A stretch of DNA of 43,966 nucleotides. It comes from an uncultured Bacteroidales bacterium. GTDB taxonomy: Bacteria; Bacteroidota; Bacteroidia; Bacteroidales; UBA4417. The translations under genes were made by a program, and so were the position numbers. Each line of letters opens with the position of its first letter. The first letter of the stretch is position 1. The notes under the pieces were generated by a model. That model had not been told where the DNA came from. It did no database searches and worked only from the letters and a program-made list of their open reading frames with translations. Location: contig CALCJE010000148.1 of assembly GCA_937965665.1 (NCBI GenBank), positions 1 through 43,966 on the forward strand. Direction: 5' to 3'. Of this stretch, positions 10,648 through 32,320 are shown piece after piece.

Positions 10648-11802
10648 CTAAAAATTCAATTTCAAATGCAGATAGATCAGGTTTGCTGTATCCTTTTTTC
10701 CTTTCACCAGTTGGCCTGCAAAAGTTTGGGTGATAACTGAAAATTCAAGATTTTCGAGTATCGAATAACTAAGTGTCGGCCCGATATAATATCCATTGAG
10801 TTTAGGGAAATACATGCCTGCCAGCGTTACATTAAACAATGGAGTTACCGGGTAGCTTCCCTGTAGCATAATGGAAATGCCTGGAAATGAAAGATTTTTG
10901 GCTGATAAATTCGTCATAAAATACTCACCAAAATTTTTTATTTCGCCGCTTTTCACAGGGTTGTACAGCACCTCAGTCTGCAGCATAAATGAGTTTTTAA
11001 ACGAATACTGGCTACCTAACGAAAAAATAAGTAAGCCTGTAGTATCAGCAAAGTTCTTTTTAGGATGGAAATAAGATACTTCGCCGTTAAACGATGCCGT
11101 AAAAATATTACCTGACCATCCGGCCCCGAGCACTAAATCATCATCATTCAGTATTCCGCCCATAAATTGGATATCATAATTCCACCTGTTGAAACGATAC
11201 AGCAAAGCGGAAGTTATTCGGCTTGCGCTGTCAGCTTTCATTACAAAATCAAACGTGGAGGTGCTGTTCCTGTAATATTGCAGCCTAAAAGCATCGCTTC
11301 CGGGTTTTTCAATGTAATCGAAATCGAAATACGAATAGGCATTAAAAATATCGTTGGGATTCCATACAAAACACTGTCCCCAGTTAATACGTTGCCGCCC
11401 TAGCCTCAGTTGAAATTTATCTTTTGTGTAATCAACATACAGCCTGTCGATCCTGAAATTAAGTAAATACGATTTTCCGCTTGCGATATTGAATGAAAGA
11501 TCTGCCAATCCATTATCAGATCCAATAATGTTCGCGTAGCCCGGTACTGTGCTTACCGTTTCGCCCACTAGCAACCTGTTGCGAAGTTCCAAAGCACCAT
11601 TCAAAGTATTTGCAGTGTTATTCCATTTAAAATTCAGCCGGTTGTGAAGCACATTATCTACTGTTGGATTATTAACAGAGCTCTGATAAACAAACGATTG
11701 CATATCGGTAACGTAACCGTTCAGCGTCAAATTATGCTGTATTGTATCCTGGCTAAAACTTGAAACAGGAATCAGAAGAAGTACATATACTAACCATTTC
11801 AT
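10648..11802 (-). CDS. Outer-membrane beta-barrel protein (last gene of the ABC export operon)
   Basis: Signal peptide MKWLVYVLLLIPVSSFSQ. Alternating beta-strand-like composition. C-terminal ...LHLKLNF with a terminal Phe. Start at MKWLV (11802) is preferred over 11829 because the upstream gene ends at 11807. Confidence 0.65.
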   Translation of the reverse strand: MKWLVYVLLLIPVSSFSQDTIQHNLTLNGYVTDMQSFVYQSSVNNPTVDNVLHNRLNFKWNNTANTLNGALELRNRLLVGETVSTVPGYANIIGSDNGLADLSFNIASGKSYLLNFRIDRLYVDYTKDKFQLRLGRQRINWGQCFVWNPNDIFNAYSYFDFDYIEKPGSDAFRLQYYRNSTSTFDFVMKADSASRITSALLYRFNRWNYDIQFMGGILNDDDLVLGAGWSGNIFTASFNGEVSYFHPKKNFADTTGLLIFSLGSQYSFKNSFMLQTEVLYNPVKSGEIKNFGEYFMTNLSAKNLSFPGISIMLQGSYPVTPLFNVTLAGMYFPKLNGYYIGPTLSYSILENLEFSVITQTFAGQLVKGKKDTANLIYLHLKLNF

Positions 11803-11806
11803 CCGC

Positions 11807-12490
11807 TTATTTCCAAATATCCGAAACAACTTTACCGTCCTCTATGGTAATGATTCGTTTTGCTTTATTCACCACTCTTTGGTCATGTGTTGAAAATACA
11901 AATGTTACATTTTCGTCCCGGTTTAGTTTTTCCATTATATCGAGCAAATTTTCGGTCGACTTCGAATCAAGATTAGCAGTAGGTTCATCAGCCAGTATGA
12001 ATTTAGGTTTCGAAGCCAGGGCCCTTGCAACTGCAACTCTTTGCTGCTGTCCGCCAGATAATTTATTCGGTCGGCTGTCCATCCGGTCACCCAATCCAAC
12101 GGCTGTAAGCAGTTCAGTTGTCCTTGCTTGCATCTCTTTCTCCGATTTGCCCTGTAGCTGCATAATAAATTCAACATTTTCTCGGGCTGTGAAAACCGGG
12201 ATAAGGTTATAAGCCTGGAAAACAAATCCGATTTTTCTCATTCGGAAATCAGTTTTCTGCTTGCTGTTCAATGTATTGATCCGAACTCCGTCAATAATCA
12301 CTTCGCCTTCGGTAGGGTCGTCGAGCCCGCCCACAATATTGAGCAAGGTAGTTTTGCCTGAACCGGAAGGACCAACAATTGCGGTAAACTCCCCCGTATC
12401 AATTTTCATATCGATGCCATTAATTGCATACACAGGCAAAGCATTCCCATCGTAAACCTTGTGTAGACCTCTTATTTCAATGATGCTCAT
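11807..12490 (-). CDS. ABC transporter ATP-binding protein (LolD/MacB-type)
   Basis: Walker A GPSGSGKTT, signature LSGGQQQRVAVARAL, Walker B FILADEPT. Confidence 0.9.
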   Translation of the reverse strand: MSIIEIRGLHKVYDGNALPVYAINGIDMKIDTGEFTAIVGPSGSGKTTLLNIVGGLDDPTEGEVIIDGVRINTLNSKQKTDFRMRKIGFVFQAYNLIPVFTARENVEFIMQLQGKSEKEMQARTTELLTAVGLGDRMDSRPNKLSGGQQQRVAVARALASKPKFILADEPTANLDSKSTENLLDIMEKLNRDENVTFVFSTHDQRVVNKAKRIITIEDGKVVSDIWK

Positions 12491-12515
12491 ATTCGGTTTA
12501 TTATGATCAGTTTTT

Positions 12516-13730
12516 TTAACTCCGGATAGATTCCGAAGGATTAAGTTTTAAGGCCTTATAAGCCGGGTATAAGGACGATAACAATCCCGCAATTATCACC
12601 ATTAAAGCTGTAACAATCATGGTTTTGGAATCGATAACAGGGTAGATATGGGTTGAATATCCCAATTCAGCAAAAGCGTCTTTCCATGCATACAGGTTAA
12701 TCCCAACCTTTCCAAGATATTCTGATATCACATAGCCTATGATAATCCCCAAAACACCACCCGTAAGCGAAAGATAAATGGTTTCGAGCATTATCATCAT
12801 GAAAACCCTTGTCCTGTTCATGCCAATAGCCATTAACATTCCCAGTTCATGCACTCGTTCCAGAATTACCATAAGCATGGTGTTAACTATGCCAAAACTT
12901 AGTGCAAGCAGTATGATAACCAGGAACATGAACATATACTGATTCATGGCACTAACAAGGTAGCCGGCTTCTGGACTAAGTTGCAGCCAATCCTTTATTT
13001 CAAGTTTCGGCAAAAATCCTGAGAGAATTTTTGCGACAACTTCAGCGTCATTATTGTTACTAAGTATAACTGCAATTTCATGTGCAGTTTTTCCATCAAG
13101 ACCGGTAAGCAGGCATAAATCGGTGTTTCGTACAAAAATATTGGCTTCATCAAACATCTGGTTATCGGTGCGAAAAATGCCAACTATGCGAAAAGCCCCT
13201 CCTGTAATGTTATTATTTACATCCTGCACAGTAACAATAATTTTGTTTTTTAGCCCCACTTTTAATTTCTTAGCCAGGTGCTCACTTATAATGACCGGGT
13301 TTTTACCTGTTTCGTCGAGGTATTTCCCCTCAAAAATTTTAGAACTGATCTGGGTGACTTTTTTTTCATCTTCAGGATTAATGCCTGTAATTTTCACACC
13401 GGTTCCTGTTTCGGCAGAGGCTATCATACAATTGATTATCACCCTTTTGCTTGCTGCCGAGACACCCGGAACAGTTTTTACTTTTTTCAGAATACTGTCA
13501 GCATTATTTATCTGAAGCGAAAACTGGTTGTTTTCGAGGAAACCAGGCTGATGGATCTGAATATGCGACATTTCGGTGCCTATAATCGACTGAATGCGTG
13601 CATCAAGCATGCCATTCATAAATGAAATAAGAAATATGCCCGAAAAAATGCCAAGCGTAACTGCCCCGATTATTACTGAACTCCGGAGTTTGTTGCGCCA
13701 CATATTTCGCCAGGCAAATGTTGAAATCAT
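12516..13730 (-). CDS. ABC transporter permease, FtsX/MacB-like with large periplasmic domain
   Basis: Topology of one N-terminal TM, a ~230-aa soluble domain and three C-terminal TMs. Paralogue of the adjacent permease. Confidence 0.8.
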   Translation of the reverse strand: MISTFAWRNMWRNKLRSSVIIGAVTLGIFSGIFLISFMNGMLDARIQSIIGTEMSHIQIHQPGFLENNQFSLQINNADSILKKVKTVPGVSAASKRVIINCMIASAETGTGVKITGINPEDEKKVTQISSKIFEGKYLDETGKNPVIISEHLAKKLKVGLKNKIIVTVQDVNNNITGGAFRIVGIFRTDNQMFDEANIFVRNTDLCLLTGLDGKTAHEIAVILSNNNDAEVVAKILSGFLPKLEIKDWLQLSPEAGYLVSAMNQYMFMFLVIILLALSFGIVNTMLMVILERVHELGMLMAIGMNRTRVFMMIMLETIYLSLTGGVLGIIIGYVISEYLGKVGINLYAWKDAFAELGYSTHIYPVIDSKTMIVTALMVIIAGLLSSLYPAYKALKLNPSESIRS

Positions 13731-13747
13731 AAATGATGATTTTAGTA

Positions 13748-14965
13748 TTAACTATGTAAAGCTTTACTTATCTTGAGCTTGTGAATATTTACAACAGGAT
13801 AAAGCCCTATGATGACAGTGAAAATAAAAATCGTAATGGCCTGGTTGTAGAACACCGAAGGCGTCATCGAAAACGACATGATAGGTTCAAATCCCATCTG
13901 CATCATGGTTTCGGCTGCCTGTCCGGAGAAAGGTATCGGGTGCAATGTAAAATACCAGGTTATTGGTATGCTTGCTACTATGCCTGTAATAACCCCTACC
14001 AGGCCAAGTAAAATTGTTTCCTGGACAAGCACAAAACTCAATCTGTTTTTTTGCATTCCAAAGGCAATCAGTACGCCAAATTCTTTTCGCCTTTCGGCGG
14101 TCATCATCATAACGGTGCCAAAAATCCCAAAAGCAATTATCATGTAAAGCACGCCTTTCATGATGATTCCCGACTGCCGGTCACTGTCAATCTGTTTCAT
14201 CAGGATGCTGTTGATTTGTTTCCAATCCATAACTTCATATTCCGGACCGAGTTTCGAAATCAGTTCCTTTTTTGCAGATGCAACGTCTTCGCTATTTTTA
14301 ACCATAATTACGATGGAGGTAAGCCTGTCACTGGCTGAAAAAAGGTCCTGGCTAGCGGTAACATCCATATAAACTACAATCCGGTCGAGATCGGGTGAGG
14401 GTTGTTTGATAATTCCACGTACCGGGTATTTGCCTGCAGCACTTACCCCTTGATACCCCTGACCCAGAAGCACAAGCGTATCGCTCACTCCCAGGTTAAG
14501 AAATTTTGCCAGCGCACTCCCAAGCACTACACCTTTGTCGCCGTCGTAAAGGTATTTCCCATTTATTATCTTCCCCGATAATCCTGTTATTCGATCTTCC
14601 TTTTGAGGCGATATTCCTATAACCATTACGCCTTTGGTAATATCTTCCGAAGCGGCCAGTGCAAAGTTTTCGAGACGGGGGGTGAAAATAGTTATCTCTT
14701 TTATATCTTTAAGTTTGGTACTGATGGCACTGTATTCCAGCGAGTTGTTGATTTCCTGATTGTTCCAATAGCCTTTCTGATGTACCTGGATATAACCTGA
14801 ATAAAAGTTGACAATGGTCTTGATATACTGGGCATATGAGCCTTCCTGCATTGAACTCATTATGGCTGATAAAACAACCCCAAAGAAAATGGATGCTGAG
14901 GTAATAAGCGTTCTTTGTTTGTTACGCCATAAATTTCTCCAGGCAAGTTTTAAGTATACCTTCAT
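13748..14965 (-). CDS. ABC transporter permease, FtsX/MacB-like
   Basis: Same topology. N-terminal LAWRNLWRNKQRT is typical of FtsX-family permeases. Confidence 0.8.
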   Translation of the reverse strand: MKVYLKLAWRNLWRNKQRTLITSASIFFGVVLSAIMSSMQEGSYAQYIKTIVNFYSGYIQVHQKGYWNNQEINNSLEYSAISTKLKDIKEITIFTPRLENFALAASEDITKGVMVIGISPQKEDRITGLSGKIINGKYLYDGDKGVVLGSALAKFLNLGVSDTLVLLGQGYQGVSAAGKYPVRGIIKQPSPDLDRIVVYMDVTASQDLFSASDRLTSIVIMVKNSEDVASAKKELISKLGPEYEVMDWKQINSILMKQIDSDRQSGIIMKGVLYMIIAFGIFGTVMMMTAERRKEFGVLIAFGMQKNRLSFVLVQETILLGLVGVITGIVASIPITWYFTLHPIPFSGQAAETMMQMGFEPIMSFSMTPSVFYNQAITIFIFTVIIGLYPVVNIHKLKISKALHS

Positions 14966-14981
14966 TGAAATTTAACCTTAA

Positions 14982-15743
14982 TCATTTAATGCTTTTCATA
15001 TTTTGCTGCGAGAAGAAGCTATCTGCAATAGGCAGGTTGAAAACACTGCTGTTGATCTCAAGTATTGTTTTATTACCTTTTTTGTTTACTGGCTCAATCT
15101 CCATTCGTGTTGGGATTTCGCGGTCTCCCGTTTTTTTGATATTGTATGCATTCATCAGGTTAACAAGTTCCTGGTCTTCATCGTAATATTCTGCTTTCCA
15201 TTGGTTGAAACCATTCACTGTTATCCATGTAATTACTTTTCCCCAGGTTACTGCGGCATCGGGCAAAGGAGTAAGTTCAACTTTATAACATTCCATTCCC
15301 CGAACTGTTTCTTTGCCAAGTAACTTCTGGGTATAATCCACCACAATGGAGGATTCCTTCACAAGATCGTCATTGGTAAAATCGGAACCCATCCACGACT
15401 GCATCATCATCGAAGGAGGTATTTTTATCATTCTTTCTATGGATGGAACCCAGTTCCACATGTCTTTTTGGCGTTTCAGAAAAACCTGTCCTTTTTCCTT
15501 TGCAGGAGCTGTAATATAAATAAGTGAATATTCTGTACCCTTGGACCATGATTTCATGGTAACACTTCGGCTCCAGTCAGGACGAACAATTGTTAGCGTC
15601 ATTGTTCCCTGGCTAGTTAAGCCACGTCCTTTGTCATCAGCTTTTTTAATAATCTCCCTTGCGGTTAGTTCCTGCGCAAATGATTTATATCCAGTACCTA
15701 TTAAAATCAAAAAGCATCCTGTCAAAACTAATTTTATCTTCAT
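14982..15743 (-). CDS. LolA-like outer-membrane lipoprotein-sorting / carrier protein
   Basis: Signal peptide MKIKLVLTGCFLILIGTGYKSFAQ (start at ATG 15743, not 15842). About 250 aa, beta-rich. Sits in an operon with the FtsX/ABC genes. Confidence 0.6.
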   Translation of the reverse strand: MKIKLVLTGCFLILIGTGYKSFAQELTAREIIKKADDKGRGLTSQGTMTLTIVRPDWSRSVTMKSWSKGTEYSLIYITAPAKEKGQVFLKRQKDMWNWVPSIERMIKIPPSMMMQSWMGSDFTNDDLVKESSIVVDYTQKLLGKETVRGMECYKVELTPLPDAAVTWGKVITWITVNGFNQWKAEYYDEDQELVNLMNAYNIKKTGDREIPTRMEIEPVNKKGNKTILEINSSVFNLPIADSFFSQQNMKSIK

Positions 15744-15910
15744 CACTTTCAGTTTTATGTAAAGATAATGTAATTGTAATTCAGGTATTCTAAAAGAAAG
15801 TAATAATAAGTCAATATCAATTTTCAATAATTCATACTCCAATCTTAAATCAGATATATCTACTCAAAATTGTCATGTAATTGTTTTTGTGTAATTTACA
15901 TATAATCAAT

Positions 15911-17641
15911 TTAATGTGTAGTCTTTAAATTTGCCAATTTGAAATCAGGACAACGAGCTTTCAGATCTTTTATAGCACTTTTTGCATTTTCATTCGCCGC
16001 ATCAATACCTAAGATCTTATCCCAATACTCAAGCGATTCACAATAATTCTTGATCACCAGATAATAGTAGCCAAGATAATTATATGCTTCTAGTATGTCC
16101 TTTAAGTATTTTATAGAGTCAGCACTTGCTTTTTCCACCAGTTTTTCATAGAAAGGCTTTGCAAGTCCTTCTTTTGTATCAGGATCAAGATTGGCGTAAA
16201 TCCTTGCCCTGAAGAGGTATGCCGGTTCAAAATCAATACTCATCCGGTTTACCATTGCCAAAGCTGAATCAGCTTCCACCCAGTTCTTGGCATCATAATA
16301 GGCACGACCCATTTTGTAATAATCATTCACACCTCCATTGGAGTGCTTAATCCTTAGTTTATATGTATCACCGGCGTTTTGAGGTTTTTTGGTTTTAATG
16401 TATAATGAGGCTATTTCTGATAGAAGATCAATGTTAGTTGTGTCAAGATCAATAGCTTTTGTTAAACTTAGTATGCCCAATGAGTCCTGGCCATTTTGTA
16501 CAAGAATACGCCCACTATACGCGTAATCCTTTGATGTGATCTTCTCAACAGGTGCATTTCTTATGAATTTGCTCATATAATACCTTGCATTTGGATATTC
16601 TTTTTCTTCGAAATATGAATAGGCAAGTGCACGGTTAAGATCATTATATGTTATAGAATCCATCTTCATTATCTCATGAATCTGTTCGATTGCACCCTTA
16701 TAATCTTCGGTATTGATAAGCATATTGGCATACCTCCGTTGTGCGGTGATGTTACTGCTGTTCAGGTCAAGGTATTTCTTGAAGTACTCTTTTGATTCCT
16801 CTGTCTTGTTCATTTTTGAATAGAGAAATCCCATCTCGAGATAAGCCGGTGCAAATGATGGATCAATTGCAATAGCTTCCTGGTAGTATGATAATGCATC
16901 CTGGTAGCTTCTGATTCGTGTATAAAGCTCTCCAAGTCGAACACGTGCCCTCTTTGACTGAGGAGCATAATCCTGCGATCTTTTATAGTTCTTAGCTGCG
17001 AGGCTTCCATTATTAAATGTATTGATCCAGTAGTCACCGCGTACGAGATAGAGTTCCGGATTCTTATGATCAAGTGATTCTGCTCGTCTCAGGTAACCAA
17101 GTACCAAAGCGCTATCCTTGTTGTTTACTGTTACGTATGCTTCAGCCAGGCGAATAAGTAGTGTGGCCTGTTCAGTTTTGGAGAGTGAAGATTTTGCTCT
17201 TTTTGCAGGAAGAAATGTTAGGGCCTTGGCAAAATTCTCTTCAGCGATTAACTTTTTATTCTGGATCAGGGCAACTTTGCCAAGTCCGACGTAGTTTAGA
17301 GGCTCACTGGCATTAGCTGCAATACCTTTATCATATCGTTCAATAGCTTCCTTTGCAATAGCATCAAAGGGAACATTAGTTGGATCAATGAAATAAGAGG
17401 CTAATTGATTTTCGCCGCTATAATAATAATACTTACCATTAGTGGGATCTTTGGCAATTAGTGCATCAAAAGCCTGGTCGGCGGCATCAAACTGCTCCTG
17501 GTAGGTCATTGTAATTGCAGTATTTAAATCCTGGCCAGATGCAATACTTCCTGTTACCATCATACTTGCTCCGATAAAGGTCATTTTGATTATTCTCATA
17601 ACTCTTGATATTTTACGGGCACTCATCTTAAGCTCTTTCAT
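15911..17641 (-). CDS. Secreted tetratricopeptide-repeat (TPR) protein
   Basis: Recurrent A/Y/L patterns (for example ALSYYQEAIAIDPSFAPAYLEMGFLY) with an N-terminal signal-like segment. The exact start is uncertain; internal Met codons are possible. Confidence 0.75.
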   Translation of the reverse strand: MKELKMSARKISRVMRIIKMTFIGASMMVTGSIASGQDLNTAITMTYQEQFDAADQAFDALIAKDPTNGKYYYYSGENQLASYFIDPTNVPFDAIAKEAIERYDKGIAANASEPLNYVGLGKVALIQNKKLIAEENFAKALTFLPAKRAKSSLSKTEQATLLIRLAEAYVTVNNKDSALVLGYLRRAESLDHKNPELYLVRGDYWINTFNNGSLAAKNYKRSQDYAPQSKRARVRLGELYTRIRSYQDALSYYQEAIAIDPSFAPAYLEMGFLYSKMNKTEESKEYFKKYLDLNSSNITAQRRYANMLINTEDYKGAIEQIHEIMKMDSITYNDLNRALAYSYFEEKEYPNARYYMSKFIRNAPVEKITSKDYAYSGRILVQNGQDSLGILSLTKAIDLDTTNIDLLSEIASLYIKTKKPQNAGDTYKLRIKHSNGGVNDYYKMGRAYYDAKNWVEADSALAMVNRMSIDFEPAYLFRARIYANLDPDTKEGLAKPFYEKLVEKASADSIKYLKDILEAYNYLGYYYLVIKNYCESLEYWDKILGIDAANENAKSAIKDLKARCPDFKLANLKTTH

Positions 17642-17790
17642 ATCTTCTTTAACTTATTATAAATAACCTTACTACTGTCGATACCACTATCAATACAGCA
17701 AATATTGATAGAAAGAATATCCAAATGATTAAACAGTCGACATTTTTGGAGTTTTCATATCGCTTGTATCAAAGGATTAATGACTCTTCA

Positions 17791-17857
17791 CAAAGATATA
17801 AATGATTGTATACGTGAGAATTAGAAAGTGATTAGAATTAAATTAGATTCTCATTAG
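17791..17857 (-). promoter_or_regulatory. Promoter module copy 1: -7 box plus four 11-bp-phased ATTAGAA repeats, facing the TPR/ABC operon
   Basis: Plus strand CAAAGATA (17791-17798) is minus TATCTTTG. The repeats ATTAGAA / ATTAGAA / ATTAGAT / ATTAG start at 17820, 17831, 17842 and 17853. Confidence 0.6.
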
Positions 17858-17936
17858 TGGCTGGTTTTTGATAGAGGTATTCTGTTTTAACTTTAAAATT
17901 TAGAAATACTACTCTGGCTCTTTCATTCCAATTTCG

Positions 17937-18050
17937 CTAATCTATAATTAGTGCAATCACTCTTATAATAATTGATGCTATCATAGCTACTGCAGTAAAC
18001 ATGAATAAAAAAATCATTAGTTCATTTAACAATTTTCGGATTTTCATCAT
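17937..18050 (-). CDS. Small single-TM peptide, 37 aa (MMKIRKLLNELMIFLFMFTAVAMIASIIIRVIALIID)
   Basis: My own translation; too short for the ORF track. Charged N-terminus followed by a ~25-aa hydrophobic helix. Third of three similar tandem ORFs. Confidence 0.4.
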   Translation of the reverse strand: MMKIRKLLNELMIFLFMFTAVAMIASIIIRVIALIID

Positions 18051-18189
18051 AGCAAGAATTTTTTCCTTTCTTCTACTTGATTTCCTTTGGTTAAGTCAGC
18101 TTAAATTGATTATCCATTATTTTAATAATTAATCAGTTCTATGTTGGTTATAATAACAGAAAGAATTTTCTTCATGATTTCGCCCAGCC

Positions 18190-18291
18190 TTAATACTTCA
18201 GAATGAAAATCCGAACAAGCAAAAATATAATGATCATCACAGCAAACATGAGATGGACTATTGTGCTGACCTTCATCCTTGGCTCAATCAT
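18190..18291 (-). CDS. Small single-TM peptide, 33 aa (MIEPRMKVSTIVHLMFAVMIIIFLLVRIFILKY)
   Basis: My own translation, same architecture. An alternative start is the internal Met at 18276. Confidence 0.4.
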   Translation of the reverse strand: MIEPRMKVSTIVHLMFAVMIIIFLLVRIFILKY

Positions 18292-18304
18292 GCTTTAATC
18301 AATT

Positions 18305-18400
18305 TTAGAAAAATATCACTTTTACTAGAATAAGAACGACAAATATTCCTACCCAGAATAACCCGATTAATGCTTCATTCGATATTTTTATCTTTTTCAT
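18305..18400 (-). CDS. Small single-TM peptide, 31 aa (MKKIKISNEALIGLFWVGIFVVLILVKVIFF)
   Basis: My own translation. First ORF downstream of promoter module copy 2. Confidence 0.4.
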   Translation of the reverse strand: MKKIKISNEALIGLFWVGIFVVLILVKVIFF

Positions 18401-18424
18401 AAAATTAAGTATTTAGTACTCACG

Positions 18425-18494
18425 CAAAGTTAAGTATGAATCTTCCGCTTCAATATTAGAAAGTAATTAGAATCTGGTTAGAACCTTATTAATA
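18425..18494 (-). promoter_or_regulatory. Promoter module copy 2: -7 box plus four 11-bp-phased repeats, between the micropeptide ORFs and the divergent two-component system
   Basis: Plus strand CAAAGTTA (18425-18432) is minus TAACTTTG. The repeats ATTAGAA / ATTAGAA / gTTAGAA / ATTAATA start at 18455, 18466, 18477 and 18488. Confidence 0.6.
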
Positions 18495-18527
18495 CATAAA
18501 TTCTCTTATTTCTTATGTTAACTTTGC

Positions 18528-18535
18528 TTTAAATA
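18528..18535 (+). promoter_or_regulatory. Candidate -7 box (TAACTTTG) for the response-regulator/kinase operon
   Basis: Perfect TAnnTTTG match 11 nt upstream of ATG 18546, which implies a near-leaderless mRNA. Confidence 0.5.
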
Positions 18536-18545
18536 GGATTAAGAA

Positions 18546-19235
18546 ATGGAAACCATACACATATTAATTGTAGAGGATGAACAAAGGCTGTCCGAAGTTT
18601 TAAAAAAGCAATTTGAAGAGCATGGATTCTCTGTCGATATAGCCTCCGATGGATATATCGGGAAACAATTGGTGGAAACCAAATCCTATAATCTTATTGT
18701 TTTGGATATAAACCTGCCATTAATTAACGGTTACGACTTATGTAAGGAGATTCGTAAAACGAATAACGAAATCCCCATTATCATGCTAACAGCACTCGGA
18801 ACCGCTGATAACAAAGTACTCGGTTTCGAAGCCGGAGCAGATGACTATGTATTAAAACCTTTCGATTTCAGGGAATTGCTTGCTCGTGTTAATGTTTTTC
18901 TAAGGCGCACGGATACAATTAGCAAAAACAATATGATTACAATTGCTGATCTTGAAATGGATTTGAAAACAAAGGCTGTCAACAGGGCGAATACTAAAAT
19001 TGATTTAACAGCAAAAGAAAGTTTATTATTAGAAACATTTTTGAAAAATATAAATAAGTTACTTACCCGCGAATTTATTATCGAGCAGGTCTGGGGTATT
19101 GATTTTGATCCCGGAACAAATATTATCGATGTATATGTAAATTACCTTAGAAAGAAAATCGATAAAGGGTATGAGCCCAAATTGATACACACAAAGTTCG
19201 GATTTGGTTTTTATTGCAGTGATAAGGAGATGTAA
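18546..19235 (+). CDS. OmpR/PhoB-family response regulator
   Basis: Receiver domain (ILIVEDE..., LIVLDINLP with the phospho-acceptor Asp, KPF) plus a C-terminal winged-helix segment (LTAKESLLLETF..., IDVYVNYLRKKI). Confidence 0.9.
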   Translation: METIHILIVEDEQRLSEVLKKQFEEHGFSVDIASDGYIGKQLVETKSYNLIVLDINLPLINGYDLCKEIRKTNNEIPIIMLTALGTADNKVLGFEAGADDYVLKPFDFRELLARVNVFLRRTDTISKNNMITIADLEMDLKTKAVNRANTKIDLTAKESLLLETFLKNINKLLTREFIIEQVWGIDFDPGTNIIDVYVNYLRKKIDKGYEPKLIHTKFGFGFYCSDKEM

Positions 19236-19238: not shown

Positions 19239-20594
19239 ATGTATATTAAAACAAAATTATCAATCGAATTTACCTTAGTTGTTTTAGGGATACTTCTTTT
19301 TTTCTCTGCAACTGTGTACTATTTTTCTTATACAACTCAGCATAAGAAGTTTGCTGACAGTCTCACCAAGAGAGCTAAAAATACAGCTATACTGTTGATA
19401 AACCTCCCTGAAGTCGATTCGGTTTTATTAAAAAAAATTCAGCAATCAACTTTTAACTGGCCAAAGGAGGAAATAGTTGTTACTGATTCTGAATTAAATA
19501 TCCTTTATCGGAATAATACCGAATACCTGACTCGTGATGTAATTAATCAAAATTCTGTCAAAGGTGATAACTACCAGTTTTCAATTTCCTATAAAGATGG
19601 AATATGCTATAAGCATGTTTTTAAAAATCAAACTTATACGGTTATGGTCATGGCCTTCGACAAAAACCGGAAAGAGAATTTGTCTGAACTCCGGGAAATT
19701 CTCCTATGGAGTATTCTTTTTAGCCTATGGCTGTCCGTTTTCTTATCCTATTTGTTTGCTAAAAAAGCAATTCGACCCATATCTCAAATAATTAAAAGTG
19801 TAAAGGACATAAACTCATCGCGTTTGAACAACCGTCTCGACGAAGGCAACAAGAAGGATGAAATTGCGCAATTAGCCTTCACATTTAATCAAATGCTTTC
19901 AAATCTTGAAATCTCCTTTAGAAACCAGAAAGATTTTGTTGCAAATGCCTCACACGAATTGCGGACACCTCTTTCGGTTATGATTGTTGAATCCGACTAC
20001 ATTTTGAGTAAGGAATATAGCCCTGTAGATTACAAAAAGCACATCGCAAAGATGGTTAGCGACCTCAAAAAACTGAATGCGCAGCTAACCAGCTTGTTGG
20101 AATTAGCCCAGATTAACCAGGATAAATCCATTCAGCTTTCTACCATCCGGATTGATGAAATCGTTTTTAATGCCATCCATCAGGTCAAGGAAAAATACAC
20201 GGATCGGAAAATAATTCCTGTTATTCAATACCCTGAGAATGAAAACGAACTTCTCGTCCAGGGAAATGCCGGAATGCTTGAAATTGCTTTCCAAAACCTT
20301 CTTGACAATGCTTGTAAATTCTCCAGTGATGATGTGGTAATTGAATTTCAGGTAAAGCCGCACATAGTTGAGATCGTTATTTCTGATAAGGGCATTGGTA
20401 TTCCATCAGATGAAATTGAGAGCATTTACAAGCCCTTCAACCGTGCCTCCAATGTTCGCTATAAAAGTGGCTTTGGTATTGGTCTCGCCCTGGTAGCAAA
20501 AATATTTGAACTTCATGATGTTGATTTTAAGGTGCATAGTACTGAGAATAAGGGTACACAATTTGAATTGAACTTTATAATTTCTCATTCATAA
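19239..20594 (+). CDS. Sensor histidine kinase (two TM, HAMP, HisKA, HATPase_c)
   Basis: H-box SHELRTPLS, N-box LLDNACKFS, G-boxes DKGIGIP and GFGIGLALV. Starts 3 nt after the regulator gene. Confidence 0.9.
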   Translation: MYIKTKLSIEFTLVVLGILLFFSATVYYFSYTTQHKKFADSLTKRAKNTAILLINLPEVDSVLLKKIQQSTFNWPKEEIVVTDSELNILYRNNTEYLTRDVINQNSVKGDNYQFSISYKDGICYKHVFKNQTYTVMVMAFDKNRKENLSELREILLWSILFSLWLSVFLSYLFAKKAIRPISQIIKSVKDINSSRLNNRLDEGNKKDEIAQLAFTFNQMLSNLEISFRNQKDFVANASHELRTPLSVMIVESDYILSKEYSPVDYKKHIAKMVSDLKKLNAQLTSLLELAQINQDKSIQLSTIRIDEIVFNAIHQVKEKYTDRKIIPVIQYPENENELLVQGNAGMLEIAFQNLLDNACKFSSDDVVIEFQVKPHIVEIVISDKGIGIPSDEIESIYKPFNRASNVRYKSGFGIGLALVAKIFELHDVDFKVHSTENKGTQFELNFIISHS

Positions 20595-20694: not shown

Positions 20695-21816
20695 ATGAAA
20701 ACTAAATTTGAACCACTCGATAAACCGGTCATAGCTGTACTTGGCGCTGGCCATGGTGGCATGGCTATGGCTGGGCATTTGGCACTTATGGGCTTTGATG
20801 TAAACCTTTTTAACCGGGGCGACGAACGCTTGTGGGGTGTCAGATCGTCTGGAGGTATTGAGTTGACAGGTGAAGTTGCTGGATTCGGTCCCATAAAAAT
20901 GGCTACAACCTCAATGGAAGAAGCACTCTCAAATGCCAATCTGATCATGGTAGTTGTTCCGGCTCTAGCTCACCAGTGGATCGCCGAACAAGCGGCACCT
21001 TTCCTGCGCGATGGGCAGATGATCGTTCTTCATCCTGGAAGGACTTTAGGTGCTTTGGAATTTAAACAGGTCCTTGATTCATTGAAGGTTGAAGCCGATG
21101 TAATTATTTCTGAGGCTCAGACTTTTATTTATGCATCTAGAGCAATTGGTCCTGCACAGGTGAAAATTTTCAGCATAAAAAATTCTATTCCGGTAGCATC
21201 TATCAGGGCTCATCTTATTCCTGTGGTGATAAAACAATTGCGTAAATGCTTCCCTCAGTTTGTTCCAGGTGATAACGTTTTCAAGACTAGCTTCGATAAT
21301 ATTGGCAGTATCTTTCATCCTGCACTGTGTATTCTTAATTCAGGCTGGATCGAAGATGACGCAGATTTTCAATTTTATCACGATGGAGCTACCCAGTCTG
21401 TGGCCCAGGTACTCGAAAGTGTGGATTCTGAACGTATAGCTGTGGCTGAAGCTCTGGGTATAAGGGCACTCTCTGCGCGGGAATGGTTTTATATGGCTTA
21501 TAGTACAGCCGGTTCATCTTTATTTGAAGCTATGCGAAAAAACCCGGGTTACCGCGGTATTATGGCACCTCATACACTTAAAATGAGATACATCGAAGAG
21601 GATGTTCCTTTTAGTCTGGTTCCTATTGCCTCGGTCGGTACTAAATTTGGCATCCCTACCCCGACAATTGATTCGCTGATACAGCTTGCTTCAATATTAA
21701 ACAACAAAGAATATAGGGCTAACGGAAGAACTTTGGAAAGGCTTGGAATTGCAGATATGAGTTTACGCGATTTACGCTTGCTCGCAATTGGTGAAAAGAG
21801 TCACTCTTTAGATTAA
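20695..21816 (+). CDS. NAD(P)-dependent opine (octopine/nopaline) dehydrogenase-family oxidoreductase
   Basis: N-terminal Rossmann motif IAVLGAGHGGMAMAGHLA. Size and C-terminal helical domain are consistent with the octopine-DH family. Confidence 0.65.
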   Translation: MKTKFEPLDKPVIAVLGAGHGGMAMAGHLALMGFDVNLFNRGDERLWGVRSSGGIELTGEVAGFGPIKMATTSMEEALSNANLIMVVVPALAHQWIAEQAAPFLRDGQMIVLHPGRTLGALEFKQVLDSLKVEADVIISEAQTFIYASRAIGPAQVKIFSIKNSIPVASIRAHLIPVVIKQLRKCFPQFVPGDNVFKTSFDNIGSIFHPALCILNSGWIEDDADFQFYHDGATQSVAQVLESVDSERIAVAEALGIRALSAREWFYMAYSTAGSSLFEAMRKNPGYRGIMAPHTLKMRYIEEDVPFSLVPIASVGTKFGIPTPTIDSLIQLASILNNKEYRANGRTLERLGIADMSLRDLRLLAIGEKSHSLD

Positions 21817-21827
21817 ATAGTACAATT

Positions 21828-23450
21828 ATGAAAACAATAATAGGTGCGGCAATTGGTAATTGTGTTCATGTAGGTGGTTTGCACCACTTCCTGAAACTGG
21901 CTGAGGCTGAAGGTTATCAAACAAAATCAATGGGACCGGCAGTTTCAGTAAAACGTATTATTGACGTTGTCAAGGAAGAAAAACCATATATTCTCGCTCT
22001 CAGCTTCCGTCTCACACCTGATGTAGCTGAAAATCTTTTTCAGGAGATAGCACATGCAATAAATGAATTGGGGGAAATACAAACCAGGTTTATTTTTGGA
22101 GGCCCGCCTCCGGTAGCTAATCTGGCTAAAATATCAGGATTCTTCGAAAAAGTATTCGATGGTTCAGAACCTGTCGAAACGATTAAAGCGTATTTACGTG
22201 GATCTTCTGGTATTTCGGAAAAGGCTGTATTTGCTGATAATCTTATTGGAAGGATTAACCAGAAATACCCATATCCCATTCTGCGTCATCATTTCGGCAG
22301 ACCATCATTAGCTGATACTTTAGAAGGAATAAAGCAGATAGCCCTGGCTGAAGTACTCGATGTTATTTCCATCGGCCCTGATCAAAATGCACAGGAGAAC
22401 TTTTTCCGTCCTGCCGAAATAATATCAACCCAGCAGGGAGCTGGTGGAGTGCCTGTCCGTACACATCAGGACATGGCTGCTTTATACCAAAGTTCACGCT
22501 GCGGTAATTACCCTTTGATGCGCTGTTATGCCGGAACACGCGATTTGATGAAATGGGCTGAGATGAGTGTAGAAACCATACACAACGCCTGGGCGGCAAT
22601 TCCTTTGTGCTGGTATAGTGTAATCGACGGAAGATCAAATCGCTCACTGGTTGAAGCCATATCCGAAAACCAATCGGTAATGCGGTGGTATGCTGAACGA
22701 AACATACCAGTAGAAGTAAATGAAGCTCATCAATGGAGTTTGCGCGATGCACACGACTCCTTAGCGGTAACAATGGCTTACCTGGCCGCTTACAACGCAA
22801 AAAAAGCAGGTGTCCGCAATTATGTATCCCAGTTCATGTTTAATACTCCGCCCGAAACATGGCCGAATATGGATATTGCTAAAATGATGGCAAAACTGGA
22901 AATGATTCAGCAACTAGAGGATGAAACATTTACTGTTTATAGAGAAGTTAGGGCTGGAATTGCTCACTTTTCGTCTGATCCTTCAATTGCAAAAGGACAA
23001 CTGGCCGCGTCCGCACTTATCAGCCTGGCATTGAAACCGCACATACTACATGTAGTTGGTTTTAGTGAAGGCGACCATGCAACCAGGCACGAAGAACTTA
23101 TTGAAAGTTGTAAAATAGTACATGGCGTTATACAAAATGGACTCAAAGGCTTACCTGATTTCATGGCTGATCAGGTTATTTTAGCCAGAAAGGAACAGCT
23201 TATATTAGAAGCAAAAGTGATTCTGGATGCAATTACATTTATTGGTTCCGAAGTTCAGGACCCGCATTCCGATCCGACAACAATAGCAGCGGCAATTGAG
23301 CTTGGTATATTGGATGCACCTCACTTCCGTGGTAATCCATTTCTTAAAGGTGATATTCTTACCCGGAATATTAATGGTGCATGGTATGCAATTGACCCGA
23401 TAACGGGAGATCCGGTTGACGAAAAAACCCGTCTTTCGGAAATTATCTAA
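21828..23450 (+). CDS. Fusion protein: N-terminal B12-binding-like (flavodoxin-fold) domain plus a large C-terminal barrel-like domain, possibly distantly related to mutase E subunits
   Basis: GNCVHVGG (21858-21878) resembles the cobalamin DxHxxG loop but has Cys in place of Asp. The C-terminal ~400 aa shows only loose resemblance to the glutamate-mutase E chain, judged by eye. Confidence 0.45.
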   Translation: MKTIIGAAIGNCVHVGGLHHFLKLAEAEGYQTKSMGPAVSVKRIIDVVKEEKPYILALSFRLTPDVAENLFQEIAHAINELGEIQTRFIFGGPPPVANLAKISGFFEKVFDGSEPVETIKAYLRGSSGISEKAVFADNLIGRINQKYPYPILRHHFGRPSLADTLEGIKQIALAEVLDVISIGPDQNAQENFFRPAEIISTQQGAGGVPVRTHQDMAALYQSSRCGNYPLMRCYAGTRDLMKWAEMSVETIHNAWAAIPLCWYSVIDGRSNRSLVEAISENQSVMRWYAERNIPVEVNEAHQWSLRDAHDSLAVTMAYLAAYNAKKAGVRNYVSQFMFNTPPETWPNMDIAKMMAKLEMIQQLEDETFTVYREVRAGIAHFSSDPSIAKGQLAASALISLALKPHILHVVGFSEGDHATRHEELIESCKIVHGVIQNGLKGLPDFMADQVILARKEQLILEAKVILDAITFIGSEVQDPHSDPTTIAAAIELGILDAPHFRGNPFLKGDILTRNINGAWYAIDPITGDPVDEKTRLSEII

Positions 23451-23481
23451 TTTGAAACATAACAAAATAAAATAAATATCA

Positions 23482-24828
23482 ATGGCTGGAATAGCAGGAA
23501 TCTTACAATCAGGAGAAATAAATCAGGTAGAGCAAATGCTTGAATCCATTTCACATCGTGGTGAATATGGCAAAGAAATAGTAGAAATGGAAAATGCTAC
23601 TATTGGTATAATTTGGTCGCAACATGAGGATGAGAGTATAAAAGCCCAAACCAGGGATCGTATTTTTAGTGACGGTCCGGGTCATGGCCACAAGGTTGAA
23701 GTAGCCCGCAAAAATCATCATTGGGAAATATCCCGTGACGAACTTGGGGTCGCTCCTCTATATACAGCTTTTAACAAGGATGGTATGGTCATATTTGCTT
23801 CGGAGGTAAAAGCATTGCTCCCGTTCTCCGATAATATTACCGAAATGCCTCCTGGTCATATCCTTACGGCTGCAGGTTTTAAGCAGAATTTTAAATTAGG
23901 ACATAGACCCCATTTACTCGCGGAAAACGCTGACACAATTGCCATGGAATTGCGCTCCGTTCTTAGTTCTGCTGTAAAGAAATGTATTAAATCAGATACC
24001 ATTGGCTCCTGGCTCTCAGGTGGCCTTGATTCAAGTACTATTGCTGCCTTGGCTCGTCCCTATGTGGATACCCTGCATACTTTTGCCGGAGGCTTAAAAG
24101 ATGCGCCGGATCTGAAGTTTGCTAAACAAGTCGCAGATCATATAGGTTCCAATCACCACGAAGTAATTATCACACTTGAGAGTATGGTAAATATTCTGCC
24201 CGATGTTATCTATCAACTCGAATCGTTTGATGCCTTGCTGGTAAGATCAAGCATCATTAACCTTTCAGTTGCATACGCTGCTTCGGAATATGTTTCTGAA
24301 GTATTTTCGGGTGAAGGTGGTGATGAGCTCTTTGCCGGGTATGAATACCTCAAATCATTACCTGTATCAAAGCTTGATGCTGAATTAATTGACATTACAG
24401 GTCGTTTACATAATACAGCGTTACAGCGAGTTGACCGCTCTGCTTCAGCCTTTGGTACCACTGCTCATGTTATTTTCACCGATCCTGAAGTCTTCGAATA
24501 TGCATTGAGGATACCCATCGGGTTGAAGTTGAAAGATGGAGTCGAAAAATGGATATTGCGTAAAGCGATGACTGGCTTGCTGCCCGAAAGCATATTAACC
24601 CGCACAAAATCCAAATTCTGGGAAGGCGCAGGTGTTGGAACTCTGATTTCCGAATATGCTTCAGGTAAAGTATCCGACTCAGATTTCAAAGTAGAAAGAA
24701 ACCTGAAGAATGGCTGGATTCTTAATTCAAAAGAAGAATTGCTCTATTACCGGATTTTCAAGGATCAATTTGGTGAGCCTGGAAATTTATCCTGGATGGG
24801 TAGATCAAAGGGAACTACAAACTCTTAA
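23482..24828 (+). CDS. Asparagine-synthetase (AsnB)-family ATP-dependent amidoligase lacking the N-terminal catalytic Cys
   Basis: PP-loop SGGLDSS (24016-24036). The N-terminus reads MAGIAGI where glutamine-hydrolysing AsnB enzymes have MCGI. Confidence 0.8.
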   Translation: MAGIAGILQSGEINQVEQMLESISHRGEYGKEIVEMENATIGIIWSQHEDESIKAQTRDRIFSDGPGHGHKVEVARKNHHWEISRDELGVAPLYTAFNKDGMVIFASEVKALLPFSDNITEMPPGHILTAAGFKQNFKLGHRPHLLAENADTIAMELRSVLSSAVKKCIKSDTIGSWLSGGLDSSTIAALARPYVDTLHTFAGGLKDAPDLKFAKQVADHIGSNHHEVIITLESMVNILPDVIYQLESFDALLVRSSIINLSVAYAASEYVSEVFSGEGGDELFAGYEYLKSLPVSKLDAELIDITGRLHNTALQRVDRSASAFGTTAHVIFTDPEVFEYALRIPIGLKLKDGVEKWILRKAMTGLLPESILTRTKSKFWEGAGVGTLISEYASGKVSDSDFKVERNLKNGWILNSKEELLYYRIFKDQFGEPGNLSWMGRSKGTTNS

Positions 24829-24830
24829 TC

Positions 24831-25424
24831 ATGGAAACAATCCCTCAGCTCCTGCACAATTTCCTGGTTCTGTTTGCCATGGTAAATGCGGTCGGCAACC
24901 TTCCTATTTTTGCCGATCTAACAGGTACTCTGAATAAACATGAACGCAAACGCACTTTTCTCACCGCGGTTGCTGTAGGTGGAGGTATTGTACTTGTTTT
25001 TGCACTTTTCGGGGATATTATGTTACGGAATGTTTTCGATATCAGTACATCTGCATTTAAGATTGCCGGAGGGATACTTGTTTTCGCTGTTGCCGCAAAA
25101 GGTGTATTATCCGGGCCTTCAAACAATCACATTCAAAGCCCCTCAACCAATAATATAGCTATATTTCCAATTGGGTTTCCATATCTGGCCGGACCGGGTA
25201 CGATTCTTACCACCATCCTCCTGATCCAGATTGACGGCCGGTTGATAACAGCACTAACAGTGATCCTGGTCTATCTAACAATCCTTCCTATCCTTTACCT
25301 TGCTCCTTTGGTGGAGAAAGCAATCGGGAAAGTCGGCGTAATGGTTGTCGCTCGTATACTCTATATCTTTATCTGTGCAAAAGGAGTAAGTTTTGTTCTC
25401 AGCGGTCTGCATGTTGATCTTTAA
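24831..25424 (+). CDS. marC: MarC-family (UPF0056) integral membrane protein
   Basis: The N-terminal FAMVNAVGNLPIF motif, about six TM segments and ~197 aa fit the family. The gene starts 3 nt after the AsnB-like gene. Confidence 0.7.
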   Translation: METIPQLLHNFLVLFAMVNAVGNLPIFADLTGTLNKHERKRTFLTAVAVGGGIVLVFALFGDIMLRNVFDISTSAFKIAGGILVFAVAAKGVLSGPSNNHIQSPSTNNIAIFPIGFPYLAGPGTILTTILLIQIDGRLITALTVILVYLTILPILYLAPLVEKAIGKVGVMVVARILYIFICAKGVSFVLSGLHVDL

Positions 25425-25534
25425 TATAATTAATTACCCTTCACTCATCTTTTTATCTTTACGAAAAAAATAAACCCCGGAATCTCAAAAATAAATGCTT
25501 AACACAAAGAACAACTTGATAAAATAATCTAATA

Positions 25535-25726
25535 ATGAAAAACGATTCGAAAGAGAAAAGGCATGATTTAAGCCGCCATAATCACAAATTATTAACTGGG
25601 GTAACATCGGATAAATATGCTATTTTACTCGACGATGGAAAAACGATTGTCTTTATTTCCGATAAAAGCAAGGAGGCCGAAACGCGTTTAAAATACAAAC
25701 ATTTAGGATTTTTCAAAAGAGTCTAG
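25535..25726 (+). CDS. Small basic hypothetical protein (63 aa)
   Basis: ORF only, with plausible composition. Confidence 0.35.
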   Translation: MKNDSKEKRHDLSRHNHKLLTGVTSDKYAILLDDGKTIVFISDKSKEAETRLKYKHLGFFKRV

Positions 25727-25765
25727 CCCAGGATACAAAACCAAGATATCTAATTACTAGCCATC

Positions 25766-32307: not shown

Positions 32308-32320
32308 TGTCGGATAATCT

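Follow-up and report, generated by a model that had tools for sequence, protein, structure and literature searches.

A phased TTCTAAT-type repeat array as the probable operator of an OmpR/PhoB-type regulator in an uncultured Bacteroidales bacterium

The window, a 43,966-nucleotide stretch of DNA from an uncultured Bacteroidales bacterium, contains heptamers repeated in exact 11-bp steps beside a divergent two-component system and several very short open reading frames (ORFs). This raises the question of whether the repeats are the operator of the adjacent regulator and which genes they would control. The preliminary description placed four such heptamers at two sites; their coordinates were confirmed, and a third copy was added at 32480-32519, two units of which are weak. 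On the plus strand, copy 1 reads ATTAGAA/ATTAGAA/ATTAGAT/ATTAGTG (starts 17820/31/42/53) and copy 2 reads ATTAGAA/ATTAGAA/GTTAGAA/ATTAATA (starts 18455/66/77/88). ATTAGAA-type units on this strand are TTCTAAT-type units on the minus strand, in which form the arrays are listed in Table 1.

The minus-strand order of a TAnnTTTG box, 21-22 nt and then the heptamers was likewise found as described (21 nt in copy 1, 22 nt in copy 2). The regulator has a -7 box of its own, although the coordinate first given for it, 18528, was slightly off (18519-18526). At the -33 position, TTTG is absent in copies 1 and 3, and copy 2 has ATTG only. In the region 17500-18700, sigma-70-type promoter matches are fewer than shuffling predicts, which is expected in Bacteroidota, and no intrinsic terminators or attenuator-like hairpins were found; an Rfam scan of 17000-19000 matched no RNA family. 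A mobile repeat element was rejected as the source of the copies, since their spacers and flanks differ and the heptamers alone match.

Table 1. Heptamer arrays, -7 boxes and neighboring genes in the window.
Feature	Position	Strand	Remarks
Array copy 1	17820-17859	minus	units CACTAAT, ATCTAAT, TTCTAAT, TTCTAAT
Array copy 2	18455-18494	minus	units TATTAAT, TTCTAAC, TTCTAAT, TTCTAAT; between divergent micropeptide and regulator promoters
Array copy 3	32480-32519	minus	units TGCTAAT, ATATAAT, TTCTAAT, TTTTAAT; newly found
-7 box TATCTTTG, predicted TPR-operon promoter	17791-17798	minus	21 nt from proximal heptamer of copy 1
-7 box TAACTTTG, predicted micropeptide promoter	18425-18432	minus	22 nt from proximal heptamer of copy 2
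-7 box TAACTTTG, predicted copy 3 promoter	32451-32458	minus	21 nt from proximal heptamer of copy 3
-7 box TAACTTTG, predicted regulator-kinase operon promoter	18519-18526	plus	24 nt beyond distal unit of copy 2
Response regulator, OmpR/PhoB family	18546-19235	plus	Response_reg 2.8e-30, Trans_reg_C 2.8e-21
Sensor histidine kinase	19239-20594	plus	two transmembrane helices, periplasmic domain, HAMP, HisKA, HATPase_c
31-aa micropeptide MKKIKISNEALIGLFWVGIFVVLILVKVIFF	18305-18400	minus	conserved-family member; ATG 94 nt after array start (copy 2)
33-aa ORF, diverged micropeptide paralogue	18190-18291	minus	likely start at internal Met, 18276, giving MKVSTIVHLMFAVMIIIFLLVRIFILKY
37-aa ORF MMKIRKLLNELMIFLFMFTAVAMIASIIIRVIALIID, third diverged micropeptide paralogue	17937-18050	minus	profile search
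Decayed micropeptide start, MKTPKMSTV then stop	17730-17759	minus	100 nt after array start (copy 1); repeat family D1
Six-gene operon downstream of copy 1	10648-17641	minus	
TPR protein	15911-17641	minus	first gene after copy 1
LolA_like protein	14982-15842	minus	domain match
Two FtsX/MacB_PCD permeases	13748-14965, 12516-13730	minus	match lolCE, MacB_PCD
ABC ATPase	11807-12490	minus	
393-aa protein, candidate outer-membrane protein	10648-11829	minus	sub-threshold DUF1302 match only
Genes downstream of copy 3	31099-32425	minus	
34-aa ORF MCIEYAYNTYASYPGLMFAIYSYLITHTLAGILQ	32321-32425	minus	ATG at +94 from array start (copy 3)
99-aa ORF	32008-32307	minus	downstream of copy 3
Two CBM48/AMPK1_CBM-like small proteins	31521-31880, 31099-31494	minus	
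Opine-dehydrogenase-like, B12-binding-like, AsnB-like, MarC operon	20695-25424	plus	without own array

The word TTCTAAT occurs 266 times on both strands of the 4.48-Mb genome. When its pairs were scanned genome-wide at start-to-start spacings of 7 to 29, they were found at 11 alone, and in copies 1 and 2 alone. A four-unit matrix gave matches at 11-bp spacing only and none genome-wide at 9, 10, 12 or 13 bp; the top three of its four genome matches are in the window (17859, 18494 and 32519). Because copies 1 and 2 served to train the matrix, their scores are circular, while the exact-word test and copy 3, which was not used in training, are independent. The genome-wide scan proposed in the preliminary description thus found the arrays to be rare and specific for 11 bp, with all three at predicted promoters in the window. 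Given this rarity of word pairs and matrix matches, the array is no common AT-rich pattern in the genome.

The genes divergent from copy 2 are an OmpR-type two-component system, as first described: a regulator with Response_reg and Trans_reg_C domains at 18546, followed by a HAMP/HisKA/HATPase_c kinase. The closest solved relatives of the regulator by sequence are DrrD, PrrA, MtrA, PhoP, KdpE and PmrA/BasR, of the OmpR/PhoB family. By profile, the named families nearest to the regulator and kinase are those of the proteobacterial CusRS/CopRS/CzcRS metal-sensing systems: TIGR01387 (230.7 bits, cut-off 279.2) and TIGR01386 (182 bits, cut-off 292.55) are the top matches, both below their curated cut-offs. 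The recognition helix is TNIIDVYVNYLRKK; the form TN(I/V)IDVY(V/I)N(Y/F)LR(K/R)K predominates in Bacteroidota regulators, both those with an array detected in the fetched flanks and those without. Outside the Bacteroidota, most relatives have the helix TNIVDVYVRHLR, and none of the about 50 loci examined there has an array. The kinase carries a periplasmic domain of ~90-120 aa between its two transmembrane helices, modeled (pLDDT 71.7) as a mixed alpha/beta, PAS/PDC-like fold. Its resemblance to the sensors of CzcS (5gpo) and CusS (5ku5) is weak (TM-scores < 0.5), so the model says little about the signal. The alignment of this domain contains no conserved Cys or Met and one nearly invariant His.

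Orthologues of the regulator (66-76% identity) were found in 17 other Bacteroidota genomes. The array adjoins the regulator gene in all 18 genomes with an orthologue at least 66% identical, the window genome included, and is divergent from it in each of the 17 others. The heptamers lie 21-22 nt from the -7 box in all 20 arrays of the orthologue group, of which 17 have exact boxes and 3, read by eye, have boxes with one mismatch. Of the 15 arrays facing the regulator gene, 11 have the regulator's own -7 box 23-26 nt past the distal unit. The heptamers are conserved in this group and the spacers are not: in the 17 arrays from outside the window, T4 and A6 never vary and C3 is conserved along with them, while the spacers drift (~0-0.2 bits, except 0.7 for A9). 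In one genome, G174, the units are arranged 2+2, the pairs being 10 nt further apart, which fits two dimers. The co-occurrence with the regulator lineage and the spacer drift lend support to the earlier proposal that the array is an OmpR/PhoB-type operator.

The specificity of the pattern depends on its length. Of 401 genomes, 80 contained exact two-unit matches, and the reversed pattern used as a control matched many as well; specificity therefore needs at least three to four units, a -7 box and regulator adjacency. In 11 of the orthologue-bearing genomes, three-unit arrays occur almost nowhere but at the two-component locus. Thirty loci with the two-unit pattern were fetched, and four-unit arrays were present in 11. 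A regulator or kinase homologue was located within 1.5 kb at 6 of these 11 (8 with wider flanks) versus none of the 19 array-less loci. More distant regulators (33-59% identity; CusR/CzcR-like) across Bacteroidota have the same type of array before czcCBA-like efflux genes, the downstream products being OEP, CusB-type and RND efflux proteins. The window genome itself contains a paralogous system on contig C198, the regulator of which is 45% identical and the arrays of which are built of TTTTAAT units.

A conserved micropeptide of ~31 aa, a putative membrane peptide consisting of a single helix with the pattern MKKxKxS...LFW...LILxKVxFF, was found downstream of the array in 13 of the 18 genomes by a local profile search over six-frame translations, and is the first ORF past the array in most of them. 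The family is conserved at the protein level (basic N-terminus, hydrophobic helix, Lys/Arg 5-6 residues from the C-terminal end), best of all at the C-terminus, beside the stop codon. This recurrence suggests that the micropeptide is the conserved core target of the array. In the window, the profile scores of the two diverged paralogues (18190-18291 and 17937-18050) are circular, as both are in the training alignment. The decayed micropeptide start at 17730-17759 shows copy 1 to have arisen long ago by duplication of the unit of array, promoter and micropeptide.

The other genes near the arrays vary. In several genomes, the micropeptide ORF is directly followed by genes for NhaA, a CitMHS permease, an Usp-opine-dehydrogenase operon or lysine aminomutase. 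At one locus (L086), opine-dehydrogenase-like, B12-binding-like, AsnB-like and MarC genes sit downstream of the array and micropeptide; in the window, no array was found upstream of the opine-dehydrogenase operon or the CitMHS gene. The TPR/LolA-like/ABC/OMP operon has paralogues on contigs C91 and C220, the window copy being a second, diverged one, and is array-linked in the window genome only. The TPR protein was discarded as a probe for orthologous loci, having returned orthologues of the housekeeping paralogue (C91) in a different context. Of the small regulon first suggested, the micropeptides are thus retained as the conserved core, the export operon is not a general member, and a third promoter is added.

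Taken together, the sequence comparisons make it quite probable that the arrays are tandem-repeat operators of the adjacent OmpR/PhoB-type regulator, which would bind as two dimers and activate a very small local regulon. The architecture of the modules, their uniqueness in the genome and their co-conservation with the regulator lineage suggest the following scheme of binding, stoichiometry, start sites and direction of regulation. Each module would be an activator-dependent Bacteroidota promoter, with four tandem TTCTAAT half-sites of 11-bp period spanning ~-73 to -34 from the putative start site. The phosphorylated regulator would most likely occupy them as two head-to-tail dimers, one winged helix per heptamer, replacing the weak or missing -33 element and recruiting RNA polymerase at the -7 box that lies 21-22 nt further downstream. 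The regulon of the window genome would comprise three array promoters, all in the window: copy 2 would drive the three micropeptide genes, copy 1 the TPR/LolA-like/ABC operon, and copy 3 the 34-aa ORF and the small CBM48-like proteins. Copy 2 is 24 nt from the divergent -7 box of the regulator, and, judged by this geometry, positive autoregulation is probable; the repeats face the opposite way for this promoter, an orientation unusual for activation by the OmpR/PhoB family.

Other readings of the arrays were weighed against this one. The repeats could be AT-rich sequence that arose by chance, or a curved-DNA promoter element that no specific protein binds, which would fit the AT-rich region and the ability of 11-bp phasing to bend DNA. 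The genome scan and the comparative data have already largely refuted this reading, which we consider extremely improbable: TTCTAAT is rare and its pair unique to these sites in the genome, C3, T4 and A6 are kept over 17 other arrays with drifting spacers, and the arrays are found strictly together with one regulator lineage. If a protein is involved, it might mainly be a paralogous regulator of the same Bacteroidota clade, such as that of the C198 system, the adjacent one not being the main controller. Regulators with only 33-59% identity have the recognition helix and the array type in common, the window genome encodes a 45%-identical paralogue with similar arrays, and CusR, CopR and CzcR of Pseudomonas use one common site (PMC11195947). 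Since paralogous systems, C198 included, use the same heptamer, cross-regulation could occur. Main control by a paralogue is nevertheless unlikely, as the orthologous regulator adjoins the array in 18/18 genomes, and the C198 arrays are TTTTAAT rather than TTCTAAT.

The adjacent regulator could also act on the arrays as a repressor or roadblock, and in some distant relatives (L019, L020, L037 and L048) one unit is a mere 10 nt from the -7 box, where it would overlap the core promoter. In all arrays of the orthologue group, however, the last unit stops 21-22 nt short of the box, at the -33 position, which together with the missing TTTG there in copies 1 and 3 (ATTG alone in copy 2) is an activator-dependent layout; repression is rated somewhat lower still than control by a paralogue. 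It is about as improbable as the latter that the short ORFs are untranslated, the array-driven transcripts being small RNAs, or that they are cis-acting leader peptides for downstream genes. The position of the micropeptide ORF directly before varied cargo genes and the peak of its conservation beside the stop codon would suit such roles, whereas its conservation as a protein across families, from the basic N-terminus to the near-terminal Lys/Arg, and the failure to find a known RNA family (Rfam) or a terminator- or attenuator-like hairpin argue for a translated peptide.

This arrangement resembles several known systems. In the DNA complexes of PhoB, PmrA and KdpE, tandem half-sites with a 10-11 bp period beside the -35 region are the established family geometry. 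Like the pho boxes of PhoB and the sites of PmrA and KdpE, the arrays consist of tandem direct half-sites of 6-7 conserved and ~4 variable bases with an 11-bp period, adjoin or replace the upstream promoter element, and would take one winged-helix domain per half-site, two boxes corresponding to two dimers. They differ in the half-site, TTCTAAT, and in the single array placed for two divergent promoters. The core promoter, with its -7 TAnnTTTG, is of the Bacteroidota type, and the regulator would accordingly contact the primary sigma factor of this phylum.

Small membrane proteins induced by two-component systems, such as MgrB (with PhoQ), SafA and MzrA, feed back on the kinase, and KdpF, of 29 aa, is encoded by the first gene of a KdpE-controlled ion-transport operon. 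A ~30-aa single-helix peptide as the first conserved target of an OmpR-family regulator would parallel these cases by analogy only, since the micropeptide has no sequence similarity to any of them. Bce kinases of Firmicutes are intramembrane sensors, and Bce-type modules share with this locus an OmpR-family regulator beside an ABC transporter with FtsX-domain permeases, which it apparently induces. A Bce-type module was rejected here: the kinase has a structured periplasmic segment between its transmembrane helices, and the permeases are LolC/E-like with MacB_PCD matches, not BceB-like.

The CusRS, CopRS and CzcRS systems of Pseudomonas likewise have their site in the intergenic space that separates the regulator-kinase operon from the divergent target operon; they have an autoregulated regulator and a very small regulon, as predicted here, and their half-site GTAAT resembles CTAAT here (PMC11195947). 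Their box is a single palindrome-like pair, with GTAAT/TGACA-type half-sites (PMC11195947), unlike the four direct TTCTAAT repeats. The CusR-like recognition helix has R-H where the regulator of the window has N-Y/F, and the targets in the window are micropeptides, a Lol-like ABC operon and small CBM48-like proteins, not metal efflux genes. In the searched literature, no description of the TTCTAAT motif was found (primers or unrelated text only), nor was an operator of Bacteroidetes CusR/CzcR.

The cargo genes in relatives tentatively point to monovalent-ion, osmotic or alkaline stress as the cue, which we hold to be possible, if somewhat short of likely. The conserved micropeptide may serve the kinase or the co-regulated transporters as an accessory or as a feedback partner. 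A fuller and more speculative reading, doubtful as a whole, is that the orthologue group (66-76%) represents an undescribed module by which anaerobic Bacteroidota respond to ion or osmotic stress. Its kinase would have diverged from CusS/CzcS-type metal sensors and would now answer monovalent ion, osmotic or alkaline stress through a phylum-specific TTCTAAT x4 operator, and the ~31-aa micropeptide with its LILxKVxFF end would feed back on the kinase or aid NhaA or the NhaD-like CitMHS.

To our knowledge, the DNA sites of classical two-component regulators in Bacteroidota are almost wholly uncharacterized. The operator model offered here, which combines the TTCTAAT x4 array, the -7 box distance rule and a matching recognition helix, would be usable for predicting targets of the whole CusR-like regulator clade across the phylum. 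With one regulator, one to three promoters and one conserved micropeptide, the locus is also a compact test system, which could reveal how an activator works with the unusual Bacteroidota sigma factor and what roles small membrane peptides play in these bacteria.

The window holds two four-unit arrays of TTCTAAT-type heptamers with an 11 bp period, each followed by a −7 box, as the preliminary description had stated and as re-reading of the sequence confirmed, and a third array of the same kind (copy 3). The ATG following copy 3 lies 94 nt after the array start, an offset identical to that at copy 2. At the −33 position, TTTG is absent at copies 1 and 3, and copy 2 has only ATTG. The copy 3 module (32451-32519, minus strand), absent from the preliminary description, is located just downstream of a GC-rich stretch (32600-33540).

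Arrays, −7 boxes and adjoining genes in the window
Feature	Position	Strand	Sequence or remark
Copy 1	17859 down to 17820	-	CACTAAT-gaga-ATCTAAT-ttaa-TTCTAAT-cact-TTCTAAT
Copy 1 −7 box	17798-17791	-	TATCTTTG; 21 nt past array
Copy 2	18494 down to 18455	-	TATTAAT-aagg-TTCTAAC-caga-TTCTAAT-tact-TTCTAAT
Copy 2 −7 box	18432-18425	-	TAACTTTG; 22 nt past array
Copy 3	32519-32480	-	TGCTAAT-gaag-ATATAAT-taga-TTCTAAT-catt-TTTTAAT
Copy 3 −7 box	32458-32451	-	TAACTTTG; 21 nt past array
Regulator's own −7 box	18519-18526	+	TAACTTTG; 24 nt beyond distal unit of copy 2
Decayed micropeptide start	17730-17759	-	MKTPKMSTV, then stop; behind copy 1, 100 nt after array start
Regulator, OmpR/PhoB-type	18546-19235	+	divergent from copy 2
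Kinase, HAMP/HisKA/HATPase_c	19239-20594	+	divergent from copy 2

The assembly to which the window belongs (as contig C148) comprises 4.48 Mb in 420 contigs with a G+C content of 43%. Counting both strands, the whole assembly contains 266 TTCTAAT heptamers; among pairs with start-to-start spacings of 7 to 29, only spacing 11 was found, and only at copies 1 and 2. A heptamer matrix derived from the eight units of copies 1 and 2 and summed over four positions gave four matches in the genome, all at 11 bp spacing, the top three being copies 1, 2 and 3; four-unit scans at 9, 10, 12 and 13 bp spacing gave no match. As the matrix was built from copies 1 and 2, its scores for these two arrays are circular; neither the exact-word result nor copy 3 depends on that training set. 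The array is a real, highly non-random and conserved feature. Words containing CTAAT look strongly under-represented on both strands of the whole genome: by base-composition arithmetic, 266 TTCTAAT compare with roughly 1000 expected, and 3425 CTAAT with roughly 12000.

A search for the pattern TTCTAAT-N4-TTCTAAT in 401 genomes of the same order yielded 30 fetched loci. Full four-unit arrays are present in 11, and TAnnTTTG or a close variant follows 10 of them. A regulator or kinase homologue was found at six of the 11 array loci within 1.5 kb flanks (eight with wider flanks) and at none of the 19 pattern loci lacking an array. A regulator search in the 401 genomes detected an orthologue at 66–75% identity in eight, separated by a clear gap from the next match (59%). 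Scanning all GTDB species representatives added nine orthologues (69–76%), found in metagenome-assembled genomes with the labels Bacteroidales, Lentimicrobiaceae, Prolixibacteraceae and Sunxiuqinia. Six come from genomes new to the comparison, and the remaining three are distinct in sequence from all loci found before. In the window and in all 17 other genomes (18/18), an array and the regulator gene are immediate neighbours in divergent orientation, which supports the proposed assignment of the array to the adjoining regulator.

The last heptamer and the −7 box are 21–22 nt apart in 20 arrays from orthologue-group genomes (17 boxes exact; three with one mismatch, read by eye). The logo of the 17 arrays outside the window reads TTCTAAT with T4 and A6 invariant, and spacer positions carry about 0–0.2 bits, with the exception of A9 (0.7). 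In 11 of 15 arrays facing the regulator gene, the regulator's −7 box lies 23–26 nt beyond unit 1. In genome G174, the four units are split 2 + 2 by 10 extra nt with the helical phase kept, as two separate dimers would allow. In 11 orthologue-group genomes, the two-component locus accounts for essentially all three-unit arrays (≤3 mismatches), which occur at one to three promoters in each genome; a control search with the pattern reversed found only scattered single matches.

A conserved peptide of ~31 aa (consensus MKKxKxSxxxxxxLFWxxxIxxLILxKVxxx) is encoded downstream of the array in 13 of 18 genomes, in most as the first ORF. When six-frame translations of all these loci were searched with its profile, the strong matches were located behind an array and were usually the first ORF there; among them is an additional copy in G017, a genome of the same genus, which follows that genome's second array. 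ORFs encoding 31, 33 and 37 aa come after copy 2; the latter two look like diverged micropeptide paralogues, their profile scores being circular because both are in the training alignment. The decayed peptide start behind copy 1 indicates that copies 1 and 2 descend from a duplicated array-promoter-peptide unit. A 26-nt repeat family corresponds to the 5′ ends of three micropeptide-type ORFs (17734, 18023, 18376).

The operon behind copy 1 encodes a TPR protein, a LolA_like protein, two FtsX/MacB_PCD permeases (LolC/E-like), an ABC ATPase and a 393-aa candidate outer-membrane protein whose sole match, to DUF1302, is below threshold. It is tied to the array in this genome alone. Paralogues of the TPR gene and of the LolA-like/FtsX/FtsX/ABC/OMP genes (41–77% identity) reside on two other contigs of the genome (C91:15104-16804 and C220:2834-8179); hence, the putatively array-controlled operon is a second, diverged copy. 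ORFs of 34 and 99 aa and two genes for small CBM48/AMPK1_CBM-like proteins follow copy 3. This gene string ends with a 41-aa ORF, MVGMSNFWGMGGGWVVALAVLITLFWLAAKIMNRDNNSKHN (30904-31029, minus strand), whose product combines a single hydrophobic helix with a basic tail; the second small ORF after the micropeptide in loci L083 and L087 somewhat resembles it.

Genes following the micropeptide differ between genomes. They encode NhaA in L087; a CitMHS/NhaD-like permease in G417 and behind the second array of G017; and lysine-2,3-aminomutase, a GNAT acetyltransferase and a 391-aa membrane protein without a Pfam match in L090. In L086, a Usp protein is followed by an opine-dehydrogenase-like/B12-binding-like/AsnB-like/MarC operon, which in the window follows the kinase; the CitMHS, DUF389 and ClC genes of the window (25766-30489) are also syntenic with L086. 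This operon and the CitMHS/DUF389/ClC genes travel with the two-component system (window 20695-30489; L086 1-12643; L193 6980-11282). G017 has an AsnB-like gene behind its first array and a CitMHS gene behind its second.

The best named families for the regulator and kinase are heavy-metal regulator and kinase families, both under curated cut-offs. A structural model of the kinase gives its periplasmic part as a PAS/PDC-like domain, which matches the sensors CzcS and CusS only weakly. The same array type accompanies regulator-kinase pairs of 33–59% identity in other Bacteroidales and regulator homologues of 45–53% in Cytophagales and Chitinophagales (Spirosoma, Dyadobacter and others). Several arrays of these Bacteroidales relatives precede genes for OEP (TolC-like), CusB-type membrane-fusion and RND proteins, or for small Lys-rich secreted proteins. 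Such Lys-rich proteins (70–73 aa) are encoded behind the array in two other families, at L015 1627-1839 (plus strand) and L039 1164-1385 (minus strand), adjoining a CusS-like kinase. None of the roughly 600 kb scanned from non-Bacteroidota relatives (about 50 loci) contains the array. The recognition helix, mostly TN(I/V)IDVY(V/I)N(Y/F)LR(K/R)K in Bacteroidota regulators and TNIVDVYVRHLR in most non-Bacteroidota relatives, tracks this split.

The genome also contains a paralogous regulator-kinase pair on contig C198 (C198:12840-15260; L194 2850-5260; 45% and 33% identity). The arrays flanking this pair consist of TTTTAAT units and are 21 nt from TAnnTTTG, as in the window. The C-to-T change at the third heptamer base may keep the two systems separate, and cross-regulation by paralogues is possible. 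L092, labelled Candidatus Saccharibacteria, has a regulator of the Bacteroidota type (56% identity) accompanied by TTTTAAT arrays and is probably a mis-binned Bacteroidota contig.

In Pseudomonas, one palindrome-like box, ATTCATnnATGTAAT (half-site GTAAT), is common to CusR, CopR and CzcR; it sits between divergent operons and serves a very small regulon (PMC11195947). Unlike this single box, the operator described here consists of four tandem repeats with a CTAAT-type half-site. The window system looks like the Bacteroidota counterpart.

The searchable literature yielded no description of the TTCTAAT array motif or its regulon; the proposed mechanism belongs to a well-known kind, that of OmpR/PhoB-family operators. 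Units of 7 + 4 nt with an 11 bp period, ending at the −33 position, match the activation geometry of this family, and the regulator is predicted to bind most likely as two dimers on four half-sites. We infer binding, activation as opposed to repression, start sites, autoregulation and the signal. Comparative genomics supports the interpretation of the preliminary description, which is extended in four respects: a third promoter, the micropeptide as the core target, an operator used across the phylum and the matching recognition helix. The gene content suggests a role of the system in ion, osmotic or alkaline stress.
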